Shown here: positions 7,961-57,647 of the stretch, one piece after another
How the letters are laid out: each line of letters starts with the position of its first letter
Numbering within the stretch: the stretch's first letter is position 1
NCBI GenBank assembly: GCA_902772105.1
Contig: CACXZI010000002.1
Location: forward strand, 2,588 to 66,587
DNA from: Oscillospiraceae bacterium
GTDB taxonomy: Bacteria; Bacillota; Clostridia; Oscillospirales; Ruminococcaceae
DNA: 64,000 nt
Direction: 5' to 3'
The notes under the pieces: model-generated
Database searches by the model: none
The model's input: only the letters and a program-made list of their open reading frames with translations
What the model was told of the DNA's origin: nothing
Translations under genes and position numbers: made by a program

Positions 7961-8099
7961 ATATGTGATGTTTTCGCCAAAATAAAATAATAATTTTTTA
8001 CATAATATATAAAAACCTTATTTTTTAAATGTTAATTATGAAAATAATAAAAGGAATTTTTTGAAATAAATTGTAATATTTTAGAAGGAGTTGTTTAAA

Positions 8100-9470
8100 G
8101 TGAAAAACAAAAAGATGTTTAAAATATTGGTTGGTGCTTTTTTTATATTAGGGTTGAATGTTTCCGCTTTTGCAGAAAATATTAATTTAGTTGAAGATTC
8201 TAGCAAAAATATAGAAAAAAAGCGATGGTCAAATAAGGAAGAATTTGCTTTATATAATTTTTTGTATGAAGATAGGGTGGTTATTAATGTTAAAAAATTT
8301 CCTGATGCTAATGTTGCGGTTGGAAAATATAAAATTGCAGTTAAAAATGGTAGTTTAAATTTGTTAAAAAAATATAGGAACATTGTGGACTATTTAAAAA
8401 TAAATAATATAAATAGTTTAGAAAAAATAACAGAACCAAATCATTTTAAGCAAATATTAGAAATAATTTTAAAAAATTATAAATCGGACGAAGAAAAATT
8501 AAATTTAAGGTCAAAAAATTTTGAAAGACATGCAAATAGTGAAGAATTTAAAAAAGAACAAAAAAATTTGCAGTTAAAAATAAAATATGTGAATGAAATT
8601 TTAAATGATGAAAAAAATTTTGATAAAACAAGACAAAATTATTTGAAATATGTTAAAGAGGCAGATATAATTGAAAAAACTGATTTTGAAAAAGAGTTAA
8701 ATGAAATATTATCAAATAATAATGTTAAAATGAATAATAATATGAAAATTTTAGAAATTGAACAAGGTCAAGACCAAGAATTAACTTTTTATAGGTTTTT
8801 GTCTACTGACATAATGGACATTAATGTTAGAAGATTTTCTGAAGATGCTAATGTTGCAGTTGAAAGGCATAAAACCATTGTTAGAAATGGTGTTTTAAAA
8901 TTTTTAACAACATATAAAGATGTTATGAACTATTTTAAAATGAATAATATAAATAACCTAGAAAAAATAGTAGAACAGGGGCATTTTAAACAAATATTAG
9001 AATTAATTTTAAATAATTATAAGTTAGATAAAGAAAAATTAAATGCAGAATTAGAAAATTTAAAAAAAGATGTTATAACAGATGAAATTAAATTAGAATA
9101 TAAACAAGAAAAACAAAAACGAATAGATGATTTAAAAATTATGTTGAATATTCCTTTAAAAAATGATGGAAAAGAGGATATAGAAAAAGAAAAATTAAGA
9201 ATAGAAAATTTAAAAAAAGAAAAAGAAAATTTAGAAAATAATTTAGAAAATTTTGGAGGAGATATTTTTAAAGAATATTTAAATAGAAAAAAAATTTCGT
9301 TAGAAAGTGAATTAAGTTATTTGTCGGTAAATATAAAACATTTAGATGAAATTTTAAATAACACGACATATTTTGAAAGAGCAAGACAAAATTATTTAAC
9401 ATATGTTAAAGAAGCTGATAGAATTGACAAAACTGATTTTGAAAAAGAGTTAAATGAAACATTAAAATAA
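8100..9470 (+). CDS. Secreted lysine-rich protein, paralog family member P1 (two tandem modules)
   Basis: AAGGAG RBS at 8085-8090. The GTG at 8100 gives MKNKKMFKILVGAFF..., matching the N-termini of P2 and P4, whereas the listed TTG at 8091 abuts the RBS. Signal peptide ends VSAFA|EN. No known domain recognised. Confidence 0.8.
   Translation: MKNKKMFKILVGAFFILGLNVSAFAENINLVEDSSKNIEKKRWSNKEEFALYNFLYEDRVVINVKKFPDANVAVGKYKIAVKNGSLNLLKKYRNIVDYLKINNINSLEKITEPNHFKQILEIILKNYKSDEEKLNLRSKNFERHANSEEFKKEQKNLQLKIKYVNEILNDEKNFDKTRQNYLKYVKEADIIEKTDFEKELNEILSNNNVKMNNNMKILEIEQGQDQELTFYRFLSTDIMDINVRRFSEDANVAVERHKTIVRNGVLKFLTTYKDVMNYFKMNNINNLEKIVEQGHFKQILELILNNYKLDKEKLNAELENLKKDVITDEIKLEYKQEKQKRIDDLKIMLNIPLKNDGKEDIEKEKLRIENLKKEKENLENNLENFGGDIFKEYLNRKKISLESELSYLSVNIKHLDEILNNTTYFERARQNYLTYVKEADRIDKTDFEKELNETLK
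8238..8711 (+). repeat. Intragenic module A of P1
   Basis: Contains FPDANVAVGKYKIAVKNGSLNLLKKY...YLKINNINSLEKITEPNHFKQILEIILKNYK...RQNYLKYVKEADIIEKTDFEKELNEIL. It is repeated 540 nt downstream. Confidence 0.85.
8778..9467 (+). repeat. Intragenic module B of P1 (with a ~100-aa K/E coiled-coil insertion relative to A)
   Basis: Contains FSEDANVAVERHKTIVRNGVLKFLTTY...YFKMNNINNLEKIVEQGHFKQILELILNNYK...RQNYLTYVKEADRIDKTDFEKELNETL. DNA patches are about 85-90% identical to module A by eye. Confidence 0.85.
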
Positions 9471-9511
9471 AATTTTTATAATTAGTAGATTTAAGTGGGA
9501 GATTATTTGAG

Positions 9512-10423
9512 ATGAAAAACAAAAGAATGTTAAAAATATTGGTGGGAATTTTTTTAACAATGAGTTTTGCTGTTCCTGTTTTTGCTAGAAAAAAAGTTAC
9601 ATTTCCTACAAAAAAAGTGGTGTTAAAAGAAAAAGATAGAACATCTATTTTTAGTTATTTATTTAGAAATAAAAATGAAATAGATTTGGGTTATGTTAAT
9701 ACAAGAAGGTTTCCAGGAGGAAAAAAAGATAAAATCGCACTTATAAGAGCAAAACAAATGTTTAAGAATTCTATTTTAAACATGTATAAAGAATATCCAA
9801 AATTTGTGAAATATTTTAAAATGAATAATATAAATTCATTAAAAGAAGTAACAGACAAAAAACATTTTAGTCCAATATTTAAGCTAATTTTAGAATATAA
9901 AGAAAAGCAAAAACAAAAAATCAAATCAAATTCAAATAGTTGGTTTAAACATATTAAAAGTGAAGGATTTAAAAATGAATATGAAGAAAAAATAAAAAGA
10001 GAATTAGGTAATTTAAAGGCATGTTTAAAATTTAGTTCAAAAAATCCAGGTAAACAAGATAAAAAAACAAAAGAAGCAGAAATGAAATTAATAGAAAAAA
10101 TAAATAAAGTAAAAGAAGATCTAAAAAATTTAAAAAAATCTAAATATTTACAAAATCCTAAATTTGAAGAATATGCTAAAAATCAAAAAGAGTCTTTAAA
10201 AGGGAAATTAGAAATGTTAAATTTAGAAATAACTCATATTAAACAAATTTTGAGTGATAAAGAAATTCTTGAAATATCGAGAATAAATTTTGCAAAGTAT
10301 GTTAAAGAAGCAGATAGAGATGAAGGATCAAATTTTGATGAAGATATTAAAAAAATTATTAAAGGTGAAAAAGTTTTGAGAGTTGCATCGAAAAAATCTG
10401 AAGAAAAAATAAAAAAAATATGA
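9512..10423 (+). CDS. Secreted lysine-rich protein, paralog family member P2
   Basis: N-terminus MKNKRMLKILVGIFLTMSFAVPVFA|R. Shares YFKMNNINSLKEVTDKKHFSPIFKLILEYK and NFAKYVKEADRDEGSNFDEDIKKII with the P1 modules. GGGAG RBS. Confidence 0.8.
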   Translation: MKNKRMLKILVGIFLTMSFAVPVFARKKVTFPTKKVVLKEKDRTSIFSYLFRNKNEIDLGYVNTRRFPGGKKDKIALIRAKQMFKNSILNMYKEYPKFVKYFKMNNINSLKEVTDKKHFSPIFKLILEYKEKQKQKIKSNSNSWFKHIKSEGFKNEYEEKIKRELGNLKACLKFSSKNPGKQDKKTKEAEMKLIEKINKVKEDLKNLKKSKYLQNPKFEEYAKNQKESLKGKLEMLNLEITHIKQILSDKEILEISRINFAKYVKEADRDEGSNFDEDIKKIIKGEKVLRVASKKSEEKIKKI

Positions 10424-10505
10424 TAGTAAAGAAAATATTTTTAAAATTAATGGTTTAGCGAAAAAAATTTGATTAAAAATTAAAGTTCATCTTAAACATG
10501 ATTAT

Positions 10506-10534
10506 TTGACAAAATTTGATTTTTAGTGTATAAT
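10506..10534 (+). promoter_or_regulatory. Consensus sigma-A promoter upstream of P3
   Basis: Perfect TTGACA, 17 nt, TATAAT, with TG just upstream of the -10. It lies 27 nt upstream of the ATG at 10561. Confidence 0.6.
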
Positions 10535-10560
10535 GATGAGAGATTGGTTAAGGAGAAATT

Positions 10561-18909: not shown

Positions 18910-20424
18910 TTAAATAATTGGAATAATTAACATAGATTCATTAGCTATTGTTTCATCCTTTATGTTATTTGCTTCAGCAATTGCTAAAGGGGAAGTTTTA
19001 AAGTTTTTTGCAATATCCCAAATTTTTTCTCCAGTTTTTGGATAATATAACGTTAAAGCAGCCTTTGTAGGTTCTTTAATTTTTGTTTCGTCTATTGTTA
19101 TGTTTTTTAAGGTTTTTAAATTTCCACTTGTATAAATAAAACCTTTTATGTTAAATTTAATTTTTAATTTAATTGAACCATTATCTTTTAATTCAAAATT
19201 TATTTTTAATATTGTTAAATTGTTTATGTTAATTTTAGTGTAGTCATAAATAACGTTATCATTTTTTATTTCAAATTCTATTGGAATAGATTTAAATAAA
19301 GATTCTAGTGTATCATCTTTATTTGCAGCTAAAATGTTTAAATCTAGTTTTGCTTTAAAATCAATTTTATTTTTCTTTTGCATATGGTTTATTTCAGTTA
19401 TATTTGCATCAATATCAAAAAGTTTTGAAATATTAATATTTTTTAAGTTTTCTTCAATTTCAATTTCTTCATTTATTGTGGAAACATATGATGTTGAATT
19501 GAATTGTTTTTCTTTAAAATTTATTTCAAATTTTGTGGAAAAAGCATCAGTTACAACGTTTATTTGTTCAGATAAACTAGCAAAACTATCTATTAAAACA
19601 TCTGCTTTAACATTCAAAATTTTTCCATCTTGTGAAATTTCAAATGTAATTGAATTAACATCATATTTAACGTTATATAAAAAGTTTTCGTTGATTTTTT
19701 GAAGATCTATTATGTTGTTTATTGAAACTGAACTTTTTTCTAAAATTGGAGTGTTTTTTGTTTCTCCACAATATAAAATTTCTATATGTGCAACCGATTT
19801 AGCAATGATCTTATTTTGAATAACTTTAAATTCATCATCAGCAATTTTAACCCTAACATCTAAAATTTCTTTACAAATTTCACTTAGTTCTATTTGTTCA
19901 TTAATATCAAATTGTTGCGTAGACCAGATTTGATCTGAAGTTATTTTTATTGGGGATAATTTTAATTGTAGATCTTCTTCTGCTGCAGATTTTAAAACAT
20001 TTTCTTCTTTTTGTAGTTGAACTTTAACTGGAATTAAAAGATTTGCTTTTATGTCTATTTTTTTAGGACTTATTATTTTACAATTTTTATATGTTGTTTT
20101 AACGTCATAAAATAAAATAGCATTTGAAATATCTTCATCAAGTTCCACTGTTTTTGAAAATGGTATGTTTTGATGTAATGCTTTAATATCTCCTTCTTCT
20201 TCGTCAATATATAGAAGTTTTACTTTAGCATTTCCATCAACTATAAATTGGTTATTTAAGGTTCTGCAAGAAGAAATATGTGGTTCTAATTCAAACTGTA
20301 AAACTTTAAATATTCCTGTGTAGTAGTCTGGTAGCTGATATGAAAAATCTATTGAGTGTTCTAAATTTTTATTAAATATTAATTTATTGATTTTAACTTT
20401 TTCGTATGTTAAATTGGCTTTCAT
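18910..20424 (-). CDS. DUF3794 (SPOCS)-repeat protein with C-terminal LysM domain; SipL/SpoVID-like coat morphogenetic protein
   Basis: 504 aa. The C-terminal YYPKTGEKIWDIAKNFKTSPLAIAEANNIKDETIANESMLIIPI fits the LysM consensus. The architecture and adjacency to spoIVA fit clostridial SipL. Strong AGGGAGG RBS. Confidence 0.65.
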   Translation of the reverse strand: MKANLTYEKVKINKLIFNKNLEHSIDFSYQLPDYYTGIFKVLQFELEPHISSCRTLNNQFIVDGNAKVKLLYIDEEEGDIKALHQNIPFSKTVELDEDISNAILFYDVKTTYKNCKIISPKKIDIKANLLIPVKVQLQKEENVLKSAAEEDLQLKLSPIKITSDQIWSTQQFDINEQIELSEICKEILDVRVKIADDEFKVIQNKIIAKSVAHIEILYCGETKNTPILEKSSVSINNIIDLQKINENFLYNVKYDVNSITFEISQDGKILNVKADVLIDSFASLSEQINVVTDAFSTKFEINFKEKQFNSTSYVSTINEEIEIEENLKNINISKLFDIDANITEINHMQKKNKIDFKAKLDLNILAANKDDTLESLFKSIPIEFEIKNDNVIYDYTKININNLTILKINFELKDNGSIKLKIKFNIKGFIYTSGNLKTLKNITIDETKIKEPTKAALTLYYPKTGEKIWDIAKNFKTSPLAIAEANNIKDETIANESMLIIPII

Positions 20425-32823: not shown

Positions 32824-33234
32824 ATGGCAAAAATTTTAGAATTAGCCATCGAATTTGCAAAAGAAATACAAAAAACCGATGAATATAAAGAGTTGCAAAA
32901 AGCGAAAAAGAAAAACGATGAAGACAAAGAATTAAACAAAGAAATTGAAAATTTTAATGGTTTAACAACAAAGGTTAAGGAGTTAATAGCAAAAAAAGAT
33001 TCAAAAAAAGAAGAAATAGATAGAACAAATGAAGAAATTAAAAATGCTTACGACAAGGTTATGTCTAATGAAAATATGATTAACTTTAATGTTAAAAGTA
33101 ACAACATGAATATTTTAATGAACAAAATAAATTCTATTTTAATTGATGCTGTTAATGGAAAAGAAGTTAGTTTGTGTTCATTAAATGAATCTTCTGAATG
33201 TGGTAGTTGTAAAAAATGTCTTGGGAAGAAATAA
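32824..33234 (+). CDS. YlbF/YmcA-family regulatory protein with C-terminal Cys cluster
   Basis: The N-terminus ILELAIEFAKEIQKTDEYKELQKAKKK is typical of the Com_YlbF family. The C-terminus is CSLNESSECGSCKKC. Confidence 0.6.
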   Translation: MAKILELAIEFAKEIQKTDEYKELQKAKKKNDEDKELNKEIENFNGLTTKVKELIAKKDSKKEEIDRTNEEIKNAYDKVMSNENMINFNVKSNNMNILMNKINSILIDAVNGKEVSLCSLNESSECGSCKKCLGKK

Positions 33235-52194: not shown

Positions 52195-53199
52195 ATGAAA
52201 ACTAAAATAGCAATTTTAGGAGCAGGAAGTTTTGGAACAGCAATTGCAAAACTTATTTGTTCATATGAAAAATATGAAGTTATTTTGTGGTCTGCAGTTA
52301 AAGAAGAAATAGAAGAAATAAAAAAAAATCAAGAGATTAAATATCTCCCAAATATTAAAATAGACACAGATAAAATTTTTTTAACAACAGATAGTTTATT
52401 CTTAAAAAATGCTGATATTATAATTTTTGCAGTTGCCTCTAAATATGTTAGAAATGTTGCAAAAAATATCTCTAAATATATTAAAAAAGATGCTATTATT
52501 GTTAATGTTGCAAAAGGGTTAGAACAAGAAAGTTTTAAAAGACTTTCACAGGTTATTTATGAAGAAACAAACTCAAAAAAAATTGTTGCTTTATGTGGGC
52601 CTTCTCACGCAGAGGAAATTGCAAGATTTATTCCAACAACAATTGTTGCATCTTGCAAAGATTTAAAAATCGCGGAATATATTCAAGAAATTTTAAATTC
52701 GAGTTTTTTTAGAGTTTATGTAAATGAAGATATTATTGGTGTTGAAATTGCTGCTGCATTAAAAAATATAATAGCTCTTGCTGTTGGAATATGTGATGGA
52801 TTAAACCTTGGAGATAACACAAAAGCAGCGTTAATGACAAGAGGCCTTTTTGAAATAGCAAGATTAGGAGTTTTTTTAGGTGCAAAAGAAAAAACTTTTT
52901 TAGGCTTAGCCGGAATAGGAGATTTAATTGTAACCTGCACAAGTGGGCACAGCAGAAACAAAAAAGCAGGTTTTTTAATTGGAAAAGGCATTGAAGTTTC
53001 AAAAGCATTAGAAGAAGTTAACATGGTTGTTGAAGGGTATTATGCAACAAAAGCAGCATATGAATTTTCTAACCTAAATAAGATATATATGCCAATCACT
53101 AAAGAACTTTATGAAATACTTTACGAAAAAAAAGATATAAAAAAGTCAATTGAAAGTCTTATGAACCGAAAAACAAAACATGAATATGAAAAATTCTAA
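52195..53199 (+). CDS. gpsA: NAD(P)H-dependent glycerol-3-phosphate dehydrogenase
   Basis: GAGSFGTA Rossmann motif, GPSHAEE, AALKNIIALA, and GDLIVTC. The der-plsY-gpsA order is conserved in Firmicutes. Confidence 0.9.
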   Translation: MKTKIAILGAGSFGTAIAKLICSYEKYEVILWSAVKEEIEEIKKNQEIKYLPNIKIDTDKIFLTTDSLFLKNADIIIFAVASKYVRNVAKNISKYIKKDAIIVNVAKGLEQESFKRLSQVIYEETNSKKIVALCGPSHAEEIARFIPTTIVASCKDLKIAEYIQEILNSSFFRVYVNEDIIGVEIAAALKNIIALAVGICDGLNLGDNTKAALMTRGLFEIARLGVFLGAKEKTFLGLAGIGDLIVTCTSGHSRNKKAGFLIGKGIEVSKALEEVNMVVEGYYATKAAYEFSNLNKIYMPITKELYEILYEKKDIKKSIESLMNRKTKHEYEKF

Positions 53200-53217
53200 T
53201 TTTCTTTTAAAATTAAC

Positions 53218-53246
53218 TTGCATAAAAACAAATATTATGATATATT
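53218..53246 (+). promoter_or_regulatory. Sigma-A-type promoter of rpsB-tsf
   Basis: TTGCAT, 17 nt, TATATT, with TGn upstream of the -10. Confidence 0.45.
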
Positions 53247-53392
53247 ATTTGCGTGTTATTGTATTTTAAACTATATTTTGTAATTTTTTAACAAAATATA
53301 AAACACACGCATTTGTTAGGTGTGATATTCGTGTGGCTTTTGTAGCTGGATATTACTAAAATGCGGAGGTAAAACAAAAATGGAGGTTTTAA
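53247..53392 (+). promoter_or_regulatory. Structured 5' leader of rpsB (possible r-protein autoregulatory element)
   Basis: Long hairpin gcgtgt...tatattttgt/acaaaatata...acacgc. The CACACGC strand can alternatively pair with the downstream GGTGTG or CGTGTGG segments, which lie just before the GGAGG RBS region. Confidence 0.3.
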
Positions 53393-54172
53393 ATGGCAAC
53401 AGTATCAATGAAACAATTACTAGAAGCAGGGGTTCATTTTGGACACCAAACAAGACGATGGAACCCTAAAATGAAAAGGTATATCTACACAGAAAGAAAT
53501 AAAGTTTATATAATAGATCTACAAAAAACGGTTAAAGAACTTGAAACAGCTTGTAATTTTATAAGCAAAATTGCAAGTGAAGGTGGAGACGTTTTATTTG
53601 TTGGAACAAAAAAACAAGCTAGTGAATCTGTTAAAGAGGAAGCATTGCGTTGCAATATGTATTATGTTAATGCTAGATGGCTAGGCGGAATGATGACAAA
53701 TTTTAAAACAATTAGAACAAGGGTGGATAGATTATATAAATTAAATAAAATGAAAGAAGACGGAACTTTTGATTTATTACCCAAAAAAGAAGTTAATAAA
53801 CTTAATCTCGAAATAGAAAAATTAGAAAAATTTTTGGGCGGAATCAAAAAAATGGAAAAACTACCTAAAGCACTTTTTATTGTAGATCCAAAAAAAGAAA
53901 GGATTGCAGTTTTAGAAGCAAAAAAATTAGGAATTCCAATAGTTGCAATTGTAGACACAAACTGTGATCCAGATGAAATAGATTATGTTATTCCAGGAAA
54001 TGATGATGCTATTCGTGCTGTTAAGTTAATAACATCTTTAATTTCAACAACAATAATCGAAGCAAAACAGGGAAAAGTAGACCCAGAAGAAACTCAAGAA
54101 AACAAAGAAGAAGATAAAGAAAATATTTCTAAAGATACCAAAAATCAAGAAATAGAAGAAGAAAAAATATAA
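53393..54172 (+). CDS. rpsB: 30S ribosomal protein S2
   Basis: [22 protein letters not shown], then an acidic C-terminal tail. Confidence 0.95.
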
Positions 54173-54200
54173 TTTTTGATAGAAGATAGGGAGGTTAAAC

Positions 54201-55112
54201 ATGGCAGGAAATTTCACAGCAAAGGATGTTCAAAGTTTAAGACAAAAAACTGGTGTTGGTATGATGGAGTGTAAGTCTGCATTGCAAGAAGCAAATGGAG
54301 ATTTTGATGAAGCAATTGCTATATTACGTAAAAAAGGAGCAGCAAAAGCAGCTAAAAAAGCGGATAGAATTGCAGCTGATGGAATTGTTGCAGTTAAAAT
54401 AAAAGATAATGTTGGTGTTATGGTTGAAATAAACACAGAAACTGATTTTGTTGCAAAAAATGAAAGATTTAAAAAATTTTCGGATTGTATTTTAGAAACA
54501 ATTTTAAATAATAATCCAAAAAATTTGGAAGAATTAAATCAATTAAAAGCTTACAACTCTGATTTAACAGTAGAAAAAGCTCTTCAAGAAGAAATTCTAA
54601 CAATTGGAGAAAATATAAAAATTAGAAGATTTGTTAAATTAGGAGGAAAATTAATGTCTTATGTTCATGGTGGTGGAAGCATCGCTGTTTTGGTTAAATT
54701 TAATGATGACGCGGATTTAAATGATGAGAAATTTATTGAATATGCTAAAAATATTGCAATGCAAATAGCAGCTGCAAATCCACAATATTTAGAACCAAGA
54801 GAAATACCACAAAATGTTTTAAACGAAGAAACTGAAATTTTAAAACAACAGGTTATTAATTCAGGTAAACCAGAAAATATCGCAGATAAAATAGTTGCAG
54901 GAAAAATAAAAAAGTTTTATCAAGAAGTTTGTTTAAAAGAACAAGAATATGTTAAGGAAAATAAATTAACTGTTGATGAATATACTAAAAAAGTTTCAAA
55001 AGAGTTGAATAAACCAATTGAAATTTTAAAGTTTATTAGAATGGAAAAAGGAGAAGGAATAGAAAAAAGATCAGATAATTTTGCCGATGAAGTGTCTTCA
55101 ATGTTAGGTTGA
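54201..55112 (+). CDS. tsf: Elongation factor Ts
   Basis: LRQKTGVGMMECKSALQEANGDFDEAIAILRKKG (UBA-like N-terminus) and ETDFVAKNE. Confidence 0.95.
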   Translation: MAGNFTAKDVQSLRQKTGVGMMECKSALQEANGDFDEAIAILRKKGAAKAAKKADRIAADGIVAVKIKDNVGVMVEINTETDFVAKNERFKKFSDCILETILNNNPKNLEELNQLKAYNSDLTVEKALQEEILTIGENIKIRRFVKLGGKLMSYVHGGGSIAVLVKFNDDADLNDEKFIEYAKNIAMQIAAANPQYLEPREIPQNVLNEETEILKQQVINSGKPENIADKIVAGKIKKFYQEVCLKEQEYVKENKLTVDEYTKKVSKELNKPIEILKFIRMEKGEGIEKRSDNFADEVSSMLG

Positions 55113-55149
55113 TTTTAAAAAATAATTTATATTTTGAAGGAGCAAAAAA

Positions 55150-55926
55150 ATGAATGGTGTTAAAACTAGTTTGTTATTTTTAGTAGACAAGCCTGAGCAA
55201 CATAGCGAATTAATTAGAGATTTATATTGCTTAAAAAATATAAATGTTATGCGTATGGATATGAATTTTAACCAAGTGCGTGGTTTCATAAATAGGAAGA
55301 GAAATTGTGTTATTTTTTTGTTTGTTGAAGAAAGTAAAGGAAAAGCTATGAATATGCTTCATAATATATATAATAACACATATAATACGCCGTATATTAT
55401 TAGTGTTTTTAGAACTAGTCGCGAAAGATTTTTAGAACATGTCAAAACCTGTGGAATTTTCAAACTTTTTTGTGTTAAATCTAAAGATTATGACGATAAA
55501 AAGGTTATAGAATGGGTAGAAAAAATTTGTAATTATATTTCGATGAACTCTGTTTTTCCTTTTTCTCAATCTTATGCTAATTCTTATGTTAGAAGTAAAA
55601 TATGTCAAAAATTAGAAAATATAGGAATGACATGTTATTTAACAGGTTATAAATACATTGTTGACGCTATTGAACTTTATATGAAAAATTTGAATTTTTA
55701 TATAACTTCAGATATATATAAAGAATTATCGCAAAGATATAAAACTGCAGCTGCAAACATAGATAGATGTATGCGACATGCGATAGAAGTTGTTTGGAGG
55801 GATACATCTTTTGGATGTTTGGAAAAAAATTATCCAGATTCAACAAAAATATATGAAGAAAGACCATCAGTTTTGGAGTTTGTTAAGTGTTTAGCAGAAG
55901 ATATAAAAACAAATATAAATTTTTAA
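55150..55926 (+). CDS. Spo0A_C-domain transcription factor with degenerate (pseudo-)receiver domain
   Basis: The C-terminal ENIGMTCYLTGYKYIVDAIELY...RYKTAAANIDRCMRHAIEVVW...RPSVLEFVKCLAEDI is collinear with the B. subtilis Spo0A DNA-binding domain (HEIGVPAHIKGYLYLREAI...SRVERAIRHAIEVAW...KPTNSEFIAMVADKL). The N-terminal ~125 aa is receiver-like in its hydrophobic pattern (LLFLVDKP; CVIFLFVEES; YIISVF; FCVKS) but lacks the acceptor Asp. Confidence 0.75.
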   Translation: MNGVKTSLLFLVDKPEQHSELIRDLYCLKNINVMRMDMNFNQVRGFINRKRNCVIFLFVEESKGKAMNMLHNIYNNTYNTPYIISVFRTSRERFLEHVKTCGIFKLFCVKSKDYDDKKVIEWVEKICNYISMNSVFPFSQSYANSYVRSKICQKLENIGMTCYLTGYKYIVDAIELYMKNLNFYITSDIYKELSQRYKTAAANIDRCMRHAIEVVWRDTSFGCLEKNYPDSTKIYEERPSVLEFVKCLAEDIKTNINF

Positions 55927-55944
55927 AAAATTATTATATATAAA

Positions 55945-55972
55945 TTGACAAATTTTAAAGAATATGTATAAT
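55945..55972 (+). promoter_or_regulatory. Sigma-A-type promoter of ffh operon
   Basis: TTGACA, 16 nt, TATAAT, immediately after the Spo0A-like stop. Confidence 0.5.
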
Positions 55973-55991
55973 AATAATTATTATATAAAAA

Positions 55992-57350
55992 ATGTTTGGG
56001 GGAAATTTATTGCTGTTTGAAAATCTGTCTAAAAAAATGAACGATATTTTTAAAAAATTGCGTGGTAAAGGAAAATTAACAGAAAAAGATGTTGAAATTG
56101 CGGTAAGAGAAATAAAATTGGCTTTATTAGAAGCAGACGTTAGTTATGTTGTCGTTAAAAAATTTGTTTCTTCTTTAGCTGAAAGAGCGGTGGGGCAGGA
56201 TGTTTTAGAAAGTTTAACACCAGGCCAACAAGTTGTTAAAATAGTTAAGGAAGAATTAGAAAAATTGATGAAAAAAGATAATGAAGAAAACGAGATAAAT
56301 TTTCCATCTAAACCACCATGTATCGTTTTGATGTGTGGACTTCAAGGTAGTGGAAAAACAACACACTCAGCAAAACTTGCGAAATATTATATGAAAAAAG
56401 GACATCGGCCGCTTTTAGTTGCGTGTGACATATATCGTCCTGCAGCGATAGAACAGTTAAAAGTGATAGGTGAAAATGCTGGTGTTGCAGTGTTTGAAAA
56501 AGGGATAGAAAAGCCTTTGAAAATAGCGCAAGAAGCTTTAAAATACGCAGAGGATTATGGTTATGATTTAATTATAATAGACACAGCAGGAAGATTGCAT
56601 ATTGATGAAAAATTGATGGAAGAATTAAAAGGTCTTAAAGAAAATTTAAATATTAGTGAAACACTTTTTGTTGTAGATGCTATGACTGGACAAGATGCTA
56701 TTAATGTTTCAAAAATATTTAATGAAAATATAGGTTTTGATGGGGTTATTTTAACAAAATTAGATGGTGATACAAGAGGAGGAGCAGCACTTTCAATTTT
56801 GTATACGACACAAAAGCCTATAAAATTTATTGGGATTGGAGAAAAAATAGAAGATTTAGAACCTTTCAAAGCAGATAGAATGGCATCTAGAATTTTAGGT
56901 ATGGGAGATATTTTAACCCTTGTTGAAAAAGCTGGAAGTAATGTAGAAATTAATGATGTTAAAAAAATGGCTAAAAAAATAAAAGAAAGAAATTTTGATA
57001 TGAATGATCTTTTAAATCAAATGAAACAAATAAAAAAAATAGGTTCAATAAAAAGTATCATTGGCATGATTCCTGGAGTTAGTGGGAAAATTAAAGATGA
57101 AGATTTAGAAAAAGGTGAAGATAAAATGATTAAAATTGAAGCTATAATTTATTCTATGACAAATAAAGAGAGAGAAAAACCCTCAATCATTGACTATAGC
57201 AGAAAAAAAAGAATTGCTTCAGGTAGTGGGACGACAATTTTTGACATTAATCAGCTTTTAAAACAATATGATCAAATGCAAAAGGTTTTTAAAAAGTTTG
57301 GAGGAAAAAAAGGTTTGTTTAATAAGCTTCCTTTTTCAAAATTTAATTAA
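55992..57350 (+). CDS. ffh: Signal recognition particle protein Ffh
   Basis: GLQGSGKTT, DTAGR, TKLDGD, and a Met-rich M domain. The TTG at 56010 (6 nt after GGGGGA, giving MLFENLSKK) may be the true start. Confidence 0.95.
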   Translation: MFGGNLLLFENLSKKMNDIFKKLRGKGKLTEKDVEIAVREIKLALLEADVSYVVVKKFVSSLAERAVGQDVLESLTPGQQVVKIVKEELEKLMKKDNEENEINFPSKPPCIVLMCGLQGSGKTTHSAKLAKYYMKKGHRPLLVACDIYRPAAIEQLKVIGENAGVAVFEKGIEKPLKIAQEALKYAEDYGYDLIIIDTAGRLHIDEKLMEELKGLKENLNISETLFVVDAMTGQDAINVSKIFNENIGFDGVILTKLDGDTRGGAALSILYTTQKPIKFIGIGEKIEDLEPFKADRMASRILGMGDILTLVEKAGSNVEINDVKKMAKKIKERNFDMNDLLNQMKQIKKIGSIKSIIGMIPGVSGKIKDEDLEKGEDKMIKIEAIIYSMTNKEREKPSIIDYSRKKRIASGSGTTIFDINQLLKQYDQMQKVFKKFGGKKGLFNKLPFSKFN

Positions 57351-57407
57351 AATAAAAATTATTTTATAAAAATTGTTTAATATTATAATTTAGGAGGAAT
57401 AATAATA

Positions 57408-57647
57408 ATGGCAGTTAAGATTAGACTTAAAAGAATGGGTGCAAAAAAATTTCCTTTTTATAGGGTAGTAGTTGCAGATTCAAGATACCCACGTGATGGT
57501 AGATTCATAGAAGAAATAGGAACTTATGATCCTTTAAAAGAGCCATCACAATTAAATGTTAAAGAAGATAGGGTTAAATATTGGATTGCAAACGGAGCAA
57601 AACCAACAGATGTTTTAGCAAAGTTATTTAAAGAAAGAAAAATATAA
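57408..57647 (+). CDS. rpsP: 30S ribosomal protein S16
   Basis: [26 protein letters not shown]. Confidence 0.95.

Follow-up and report, generated by a model that had tools for sequence, protein, structure and literature searches.

The gene behind rpsB-tsf and its conservation

The window analysed here, 64,000 nucleotides (64 kb) of contig CACXZI010000002.1 from an Oscillospiraceae bacterium (assembly GCA_902772105.1), has a guanine-cytosine (GC) content of 25% and carries, between the genes tsf and ffh, an intact ATG-started open reading frame (ORF) of 258 residues (55150-55926, +) that encodes a Spo0A-like protein. We refer to this ORF and its orthologues as X. The local gene order is der-plsY-gpsA-rpsB-tsf-X-ffh-rpsP-KH-rimM-trmD-uvrC. 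The first gene of the unit that leads to X is rpsB (ribosomal protein S2; 53393..54172, +), assigned from its ORF and from Pfam Ribosomal_S2 on identical DNA; the genes that occupy this position in the related loci are all 72-86% identical to it. It is followed by tsf (elongation factor Ts; 54201..55112, +; ORF and Pfam EF_TS on identical contigs), which lies directly upstream of X. The tsf-X spacer (55113..55149, +) places the start of X 37 nt past the tsf stop (55112) and contains an AGGAG Shine-Dalgarno sequence (55138-55142). Three segments make up the protein, all encoded on the same strand: a receiver-like N-terminal domain, described below as a pseudo-receiver (residues 1-132, 55150..55545) and delimited by AlphaFold, Foldseek and hhalign; an inter-domain linker (residues 133-147, 55546..55590), in which the predicted local distance difference test score (pLDDT) is <50 for residues 134-142; and a Spo0A_C DNA-binding domain assigned by Pfam PF08769 (residues 148-258, 55591..55926 with the stop codon included).

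A scan of 53100-57500 found no terminator-like site and no strong promoter between tsf and X. Ahead of the ffh operon lies a sigma-70 promoter that agrees with the consensus at 12/12 positions (TTGACA-16-TATAAT, 55945..55972, +, found by sequence scan), and this pair of elements is kept at the same place in four related loci (L001, L002, L008 and L012). Since a perfect promoter separates the X stop from ffh (SRP54; 55992..57350, +; the gene caller puts the start at 56010), which leads the downstream operon of rpsP, the KH-domain gene, rimM and trmD, X is probably the last cistron of the rpsB-tsf transcription unit. The arrangement is not peculiar to this contig. X stands directly after rpsB-tsf in every locus, with tsf preceding it wherever the upstream side is included, and in most loci it is ahead of ffh or ylxM-ffh. 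In one case (L005) the downstream side has been rearranged and X is still joined to tsf, and the locus of a distant homologue, P0026 (30% identical), has the order tsf-X-ylxM-ffh. This linkage, found in every locus recovered, supports the suggestion of an earlier note on this DNA that a gene starting 37 nt after tsf with no terminator in between is likely to be co-transcribed with rpsB-tsf. None of these loci has a gene for a kinase, a phosphatase or a sensor linked to X.

Two observations concern the genes on either side. Upstream of rpsB there is a conserved leader (53300-53392 in the window), found at the same position in L001, L002, L003, L005, L008 and L012, in which a long-range helix CACGCAT ... 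ATGCG is followed by a GGAGG ahead of the true Shine-Dalgarno sequence, and one pair covaries G-C / A-U in 3/7 loci. No Rfam family matches it, and it may be an S2 autoregulatory leader. On the other side, ylxM (UPF0122), the usual gene ahead of ffh, is present in the distant relatives L003 (10877-11224), L004, L006 and L013 (2776-3237) and missing from the window's own subclade (window, L001, L002 and L012). X is ruled out as a replacement of ylxM, as both genes coexist in L003 and L013.

Eight contigs of independent assembly, mainly from metagenomes of the cattle rumen (STEW19), encode an identical X protein; six of these contigs are 50-200 kb in length. Between these contigs there are 14 distinct nucleotide differences, all of them synonymous, and up to about 1% nucleotide divergence. 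The synonymous-only pattern is forced, because the look-up returns identical proteins only, and selection was judged from orthologues instead. Since the same protein recurs on eight independent contigs that differ at the nucleotide level, X is not an artefact of assembly, frame or sequencing. A collection of 5.8 billion proteins contains 21 homologues of X (42-100% identity), with the N-terminal domain conserved in 19 of them. Full-length matches at E <= 1e-53 in a library of 1.8 billion representatives come down to only four clusters at 50% identity (P0005, P0022, P0023 and P0026); the other early matches are proteins with several tandem Spo0A_C domains, and these give way to a generic Spo0A_C background (7962 proteins at E <= 1e-3). 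The tandem proteins (P0024, P0025, P0027, P0033 and P0089) have 3 to 5 such domains, for example four stretches in 454 residues or five in 849, an architecture that to our knowledge is undescribed.

X is found in 10 GTDB species representatives, all metagenome-assembled genomes (MAGs) of uncultured Clostridia, Oscillospiraceae or Ruminococcaceae with 26-40% GC, which come from rumen, mouse gut and human gut. Is the receiver-like half of the protein decaying in these organisms? Mean pairwise identity within the family is 46% for the N domain and 61% for the C domain, and among the three segments the minimum pairwise identity is lowest in the linker (0.13). The ratio of non-synonymous to synonymous substitution rates (dN/dS), estimated against three orthologues with dS near saturation, lies at 0.14-0.20 in the N domain and is lower still, 0.05-0.12, in the C domain. 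Ratios so well below 1 indicate that both domains are under purifying selection and that the receiver-like domain is maintained, with no sign of decay. The clade that carries X consists of uncultured, AT-rich Clostridia of the rumen and gut, in which it is a single chromosomal gene passed on vertically. An origin from mobile elements is ruled out: phage and plasmid collections match X weakly, in the C-terminal part only and at 21-31% identity.

Receiver fold and recognition helix

The N-terminal domain has diverged beyond the reach of the usual receiver model. Pfam Response_reg (PF00072) does not match X, nor any of 19 N-domains of the family, at E <= 10, and a family profile searched against the PDB gives a receiver match that is marginal (E 0.13). 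The fold is recognised from structure prediction. AlphaFold2 models full-length X with a pLDDT of 82, and the N domain alone with a pLDDT of 89.4 and a predicted template modelling score (pTM) of 0.85. Residues 6-132 of the model form a (beta-alpha)5 CheY-like fold, with the predicted elements in the order b1(6-12)-a1-b2(31-35)-a2-b3(53-59)-a3-b4(82-87)-a4-b5(105-108)-a5(116-133). The top Foldseek matches of this model are receivers (XynC, Spo0A 1qmp and 5wq0, DesR, FixJ, Spo0F and RR468), with a probability of 1.0 and template modelling (TM) scores of 0.65-0.74; the top 50 are nearly all receivers (TM 0.6-0.74), among 287 matches at E <= 1e-3.

The catalytic positions were mapped onto X with a MAFFT alignment of 110 two-domain proteins and, independently of it, with hhalign. 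The acidic pair falls on Val12/Asp13, the acceptor aspartate on Phe58 (codon 55321-55323), the Thr/Ser position on Phe87 and the Lys position on Val109. The earlier note had described this half as receiver-like without the catalytic set and with a single acidic residue left at the end of beta1, and both points are borne out by the predicted fold and the residue map. It had put the acceptor at Phe58 or Val59, of which the profile alignment selects Phe58. Its further idea, that Glu60/Glu61 could stand in for the missing aspartate, does not hold: Glu60 aligns with a Glu conserved at acceptor+2 in the paralogue family discussed below (motif LDLEL) and so is inherited, and as Asp-containing relatives carry the same Glu, a relocated or phosphomimetic acceptor at this position is ruled out. 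The proposed T/S and K residues, Ser85 and Lys111, are not at the homologous positions either, and 'Lys111' was a miscount, since residue 111 of X is a serine and the lysines are residues 110 and 112; Lys110 is kept in the nearest relatives only. Two ways in which the domain could have been misread had also been raised, a correctly placed aspartate and a mis-framed N-terminus. The acceptor position holds Phe58, and the N-terminal frame is the same on the eight independent contigs and conserved in the 19 homologues.

Across the family the acceptor position is occupied by F, L, I, G or Y, and Asp13 is not conserved, with N or E in its place in several members. Conservation in the N domain is found instead in the hydrophobic core and in His97, Lys105, Phe107, Tyr114, Val119 and Trp122 on alpha4-beta5-alpha5. 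Of the cysteines, Cys53 is nearly invariant and Cys207, inside the recognition helix of the C domain, is invariant. Judged by these alignments, the receiver of X is a pseudo-receiver (an aspartate-less receiver), in which every catalytic position apart from one Asp of the acidic pair has been replaced, mostly by hydrophobic residues. With the acceptor Asp and the rest of the catalytic set gone, conventional phosphorylation of X is implausible, in agreement with what the earlier note predicted.

The earlier note assigned the C-terminal half to Spo0A_C, and this is confirmed. Pfam PF08769 matches residues 151-252 (E 3.2e-19, 69.3 bits against a cut-off of 25) over model positions 1-104 of 104, phmmer against the PDB retrieves the Spo0A C-domains 1fc3 (E 5e-11) and 1lq1 (E 1e-10), and Foldseek places the AlphaFold model of X on 1fc3 with a TM score of 0.88 and a root-mean-square deviation of 1.7 Å. 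Identity to the C domain of Bacillus Spo0A is 23%, and the Spo0A equivalog model TIGR02875, aligned over residues 11-253, gives 63.3 bits against its cut-off of 200.

The recognition helix (residues 201-218, 55750-55803, +, located by helix comparison and structure alignments) reads DRCMRHAIEVVW in X and ERAIRHAIEVAW in canonical Spo0A. Its invariant motif in X is D205-R-C-M-R-H-A-I-E-V-V-W216; the core family has (I/V)-D-R-C-M-R-H-A-I-E-V-V-W, to be compared with V-E-R-A-I-R-H-A-I-E-V-A-W in the canonical proteins. The helix residues Arg, Arg, His, Ile, Glu and Trp are kept, while an otherwise invariant Glu has become Asp. We take Arg206, Arg209, His210, Ile212, Glu213 and Trp216 of X to be equivalent to R214, R217, H218, I220, E221 and W224 of the canonical protein (B. 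subtilis numbering). In the Spo0A-DNA structure 1lq1 the base-specific contacts reportedly come from Glu213, Arg214 and Arg217 of Spo0A. Since the canonical Arg-x-x-Arg-His...Ile-Glu-Val pattern is kept, X probably recognises 0A-box-like (TGTCGAA-type) DNA, and the Glu-to-Asp change perhaps alters the specificity slightly. In TGTCGAA it is G2, C4 and G5 that the Spo0A domain contacts specifically, and the isolated DNA-binding domain of Spo0A binds its targets unphosphorylated (PMC3485338). Elsewhere in the domain, the KPTNSEFI of canonical Spo0A is replaced by RPSVLEFV in X.

Descent and likeness to known regulators

There are two groups of two-domain Spo0A_C proteins. One is canonical Spo0A, which carries the motif DD...D(I/V)(I/V)MP...S/T...KP. 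The second group, a large one, has E-D...L-D-L-E-L...T...K, three inserted residues after beta5 that carry a D-Y-S motif and, in the C domain, W..TD...L...YP. With this second group X has in common the D-Y-S insert, the Glu at acceptor+2, a P-Y before beta4 and W..TD...L...YP. Profile hidden Markov model (HMM) scores point the same way for 21/21 X members, both in the N domain (15-49 bits to the second group vs 0-26 to the canonical one) and in the C domain (88-111 vs 75-101 bits). By hhalign the N domain matches the second group at 97.7% (E 2e-12, 131 columns) and canonical Spo0A at 43.8% (E 2e-4). In neighbour-joining (NJ) trees built on Poisson distances, the split between the canonical proteins on one side and the second group plus X on the other has 96% bootstrap support; X is monophyletic at 100% and joins P0026 at 93%, and the smallest clade around X adds non-canonical members only in 100/100 replicates. 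On these comparisons X is a derived, Asp-less offshoot of an Asp-containing Spo0A_C paralogue family and no diverged canonical orthologue. The earlier note had left two options, an atypical paralogue or the only Spo0A of the lineage. Descent from a distinct and widespread family of Spo0A_C response regulators, as seen in the HMM scores, hhalign and the NJ split, favours the former; the latter, which we regard as unlikely, is weighed below.

The second group occurs in cultured Lachnospiraceae, for example in Konateibacter massiliensis (P0371) and another Lachnospiraceae member (P0375), and its proteins are named by NCBI 'sporulation initiation factor Spo0A C-terminal domain-containing protein'. 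A member of the group searched against the phage and plasmid collections finds matches of 20-33% identity only. The group probably includes the extra spo0A paralogues of Clostridiales and Faecalibacterium: 10 Clostridiales genomes have two spo0A genes and Anaerostipes hadrus has three (10.1101/2022.02.25.481979), and three Spo0A homologues were detected in the proteome of Faecalibacterium duncaniae (PMC13020158). Although these paralogue regulators are the best profile match to X in both domains and lie on the same side of the tree, they differ from it in three respects. They keep the Asp acceptor, Thr, Lys and the Pfam Response_reg match, which the X family does not. Their genes stand in variable, orphan contexts, beside insertion sequence (IS) elements or other regulators, whereas X always follows rpsB-tsf. 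Finally, the R-H pair of the recognition helix is present in all core X members and in 0/52 members of the paralogue family, which have R-N, R-T, Q-N and similar pairs at this position. One cluster of the paralogue type, in a Lachnospiraceae MAG (GCA_948762105.1; L022, 5379-8789), has an Asp-containing paralogue near a 169-aa Spo0A_C-only protein, a LytTR regulator and a HATPase fragment, and adjoins engB-lon-clpX-clpP-tig.

Canonical Spo0A (TIGR02875; B. subtilis, G. stearothermophilus, C. difficile) has the same architecture as X, a receiver fold followed by Spo0A_C, with the C-domain fold shared and the key helix residues matching. In contrast to it, X is without the phospho-acceptor Asp, Thr and Lys, has Asp for Glu at the first position of the helix, falls outside the canonical clade in the tree and stays below the 200-bit equivalog cut-off. 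The canonical gene typically adjoins spoIVB, while X lies between tsf and ffh or ylxM in the loci examined. Spo0A-type proteins seem to have lost the phosphorylation site on several occasions: P0148, P0153, P0157, P0165 and P0170 have a C domain of canonical type (142-186 bits to the canonical profile) and receivers without the acceptor Asp, with Gly, His, Glu, Gly and Glu, respectively, in its place.

The closest functional parallels are found outside the Spo0A family. ChxR, HP1043/HsrA, BldM/WhiI, GlnR, RitR and C. difficile CmrT all combine, like X, a receiver fold without a phosphorylatable Asp with a DNA-binding output. The activity of such pseudo-receiver regulators is independent of His-Asp phosphotransfer, and they are often constitutive dimers (PMC4395418, PMC12632262, PMC3960148). 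They act through outputs of the OmpR/PhoB or NarL/LuxR type, in contrast to the Spo0A_C output of X, and X has drifted to the point where the Pfam receiver model no longer matches; we found no pseudo-receiver regulator with a Spo0A_C output described in the literature. A Spo0A-type DNA-binding domain freed from phosphorelay control, as in X, is also seen in the truncated, C-domain-only Spo0A of phages (PMC10294663). X differs from these in keeping a conserved, selected N domain and in being chromosomal, in housekeeping synteny.

Probable role in a lineage with sporulation genes

Three sporulation genes lie elsewhere in the window, on the minus strand: a full-length spoIVA with all three Pfam domains (17292-18767), a sipL-type gene identified by its SPOCS and LysM domains (18910-20424) and a SpoIID-like gene with a weak match (1051-2352). 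With spoIVA and sipL intact and the SpoIID-like gene beside them, the X lineage looks sporogenic. The window also has a YlbF/YmcA-family gene (Com_YlbF; 32824-33234, +) directly upstream of mutS-mutL-miaA; members of this family affect how much phosphorylated Spo0A (Spo0A-P) accumulates in B. subtilis. Two further features are unrelated to sporulation. A bacterial class A RNase P RNA (12168-12501, +, 267 bits) is the sole Rfam match at gathering level in the window, and its gene breaks an AT-rich block (8091-15800, 18-23% GC) that otherwise holds five ORFs of 244-786 residues without a Pfam match. A profile search with 21 canonical Spo0A sequences gave at least 8000 candidates, and the 120 listed were generic Bacillus and Clostridium proteins. 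Two AT-rich canonical Spo0A representatives were considered as the canonical Spo0A of the X clade and rejected. P0086, a canonical example near spoIVB (Peptidase_S55) on a contig of 27.6% GC, could not be linked to the clade, the gene family shared with the window being 33-35% identical to the window's copy, and P0150 lies in an unrelated context.

What is the role of X then? On balance we lean towards X being a pseudo-receiver Spo0A paralogue that acts independently of phosphorylation, is co-expressed with rpsB-tsf and works next to a canonical Spo0A whose gene lies in another part of the genome. In such a mechanism X would receive no phosphoryl group from a kinase or phosphorelay, so that its activity would be phosphorylation-independent; the conserved alpha4-beta5-alpha5 region would probably support a constitutive dimer, as in other atypical regulators, and the recognition helix would probably bind 0A-box-like sites. 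Without its own promoter or terminator, and starting 37 nt past tsf, X would probably be present at a level dictated by transcription of rpsB-tsf. Growth rate, and not a sensor kinase, would then determine this level. Its most likely role would be that of a growth-coupled, constitutive occupant of Spo0A-type operators beside canonical Spo0A.

Several observations speak against this reading. No second Spo0A-type ORF was found in the 64-kb window or in the related loci, which are a small part of each genome. Co-transcription of X with rpsB-tsf is deduced from spacing and from the lack of predicted signals. The search for TGTCGAA boxes that the earlier note had proposed genome-wide, carried out over the window and the operon in related loci, gave a negative answer: 4 boxes in the window vs 2.6 expected is no enrichment, and there is no conserved 0A-type box (TGNCGAA) around rpsB-tsf-X-ffh in the related loci. 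The LFGYT segment of the canonical protein, which we take to be the sigma-A-activating region of B. subtilis Spo0A, is NYPDS in X and thus not conserved. Finally, the acceptor position varies between Phe and Ile within a single 90% cluster (Ile58 in the representative, Phe58 in the window); such a polymorphic residue fits a structural role and says nothing on activity.

A different proposal is that X is the only Spo0A of the lineage, the canonical gene having been lost, and that an unphosphorylatable protein governs entry into sporulation, responding to how strongly its gene is transcribed, to a partner protein or to a small molecule. The clade DNA examined (64 kb plus syntenic 20-kb loci) holds no other Spo0A-type ORF in a lineage that looks sporogenic from spoIVA, sipL and the SpoIID-like gene, and X is single-copy, kept in a conserved housekeeping position and under purifying selection. 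Among the non-canonical regulators compared, the core X family alone keeps the canonical R-H...I-E-V helix that control of 0A-box promoters would need, and the metagenomic proteins with a canonical C domain and no acceptor Asp (the five listed above) exist as a parallel. However, X descends from the paralogue family, scores 63 bits against the 200 required by TIGR02875, and has a C domain far more diverged, at 23% identity to Bacillus Spo0A, than those of known orthologues, with the sigma-A-activating region unconserved. The DNA visible per genome amounts to about 64 kb plus the syntenic 20-kb loci, and every characterised spore-former has a canonical Spo0A (10.1101/2022.02.25.481979). We regard this proposal as unlikely.

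A canonical-like recognition helix joined to an unconserved activation surface would also suit an antagonist or decoy, which blocks Spo0A-P during growth so that sporulation starts only once transcription of the ribosomal operon falls. X could achieve this by competing for 0A boxes without activation, by forming dead heterodimers with Spo0A or by titrating its kinases. Its place in a growth-rate-controlled operon and the conserved alpha4-beta5-alpha5 face would agree with such a function; BldM and WhiI reportedly provide a precedent for heterodimers between atypical regulators, and phage-borne Spo0A C-domains have been proposed to manipulate sporulation (PMC10294663). However, the argument is entirely inferential and needs a canonical Spo0A in the same genomes, and heterodimers are not obviously favoured, as the N domain resembles canonical receivers only distantly (44% by hhalign). 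We consider an antagonist doubtful.

It is improbable that X is still controlled by a signal in some non-canonical way, through phosphorylation of Asp13 or next to Glu60, through cysteine redox chemistry or through a ligand in a hydrophobic pocket. The invariant Cys207 and nearly invariant Cys53 would be candidates for redox control, which is known for the atypical regulators RitR and HP1021 (PMC12632262), and the four hydrophobic catalytic positions could form a pocket. However, the helix cysteine is also present in the relatives P0026 and P0035 and in several Asp-containing paralogues, Asp13 gives way to N or E in several members, and no kinase, phosphatase or sensor gene accompanies X. Least of all is X a functionless decaying remnant or an assembly or frame artefact: the loss of the catalytic residues and of the Pfam match might suggest as much, but an intact ORF encoding an identical protein on eight independent contigs, 21 homologues with a conserved N domain, dN/dS well below 1 in both domains, a confident fold prediction and synteny kept down to 30% identity effectively refute it.

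Spo0A is the textbook example of a developmental switch thrown by aspartate phosphorylation, and the usual practice is to take its DNA-binding domain as a marker unique to that switch. The X family joins this type of domain, with a canonical-looking helix, to a receiver that is selected yet catalytically dead, and it sits in a translation-factor operon of organisms in which sporulation genes are retained. Where a Spo0A_C match is taken to mean 'spo0A present', as is common in surveys of sporulation capacity in gut and rumen MAGs, X will be counted as Spo0A. If X works beside canonical Spo0A, it would represent an undescribed, growth-coupled layer of control over 0A-box promoters. If instead there were no Spo0A other than X, the view that entry into sporulation always needs phosphotransfer would be overturned, and throughout a lineage of rumen and gut Clostridia the level of the master regulator would be tied to rpsB-tsf and not to kinases or a phosphorelay.

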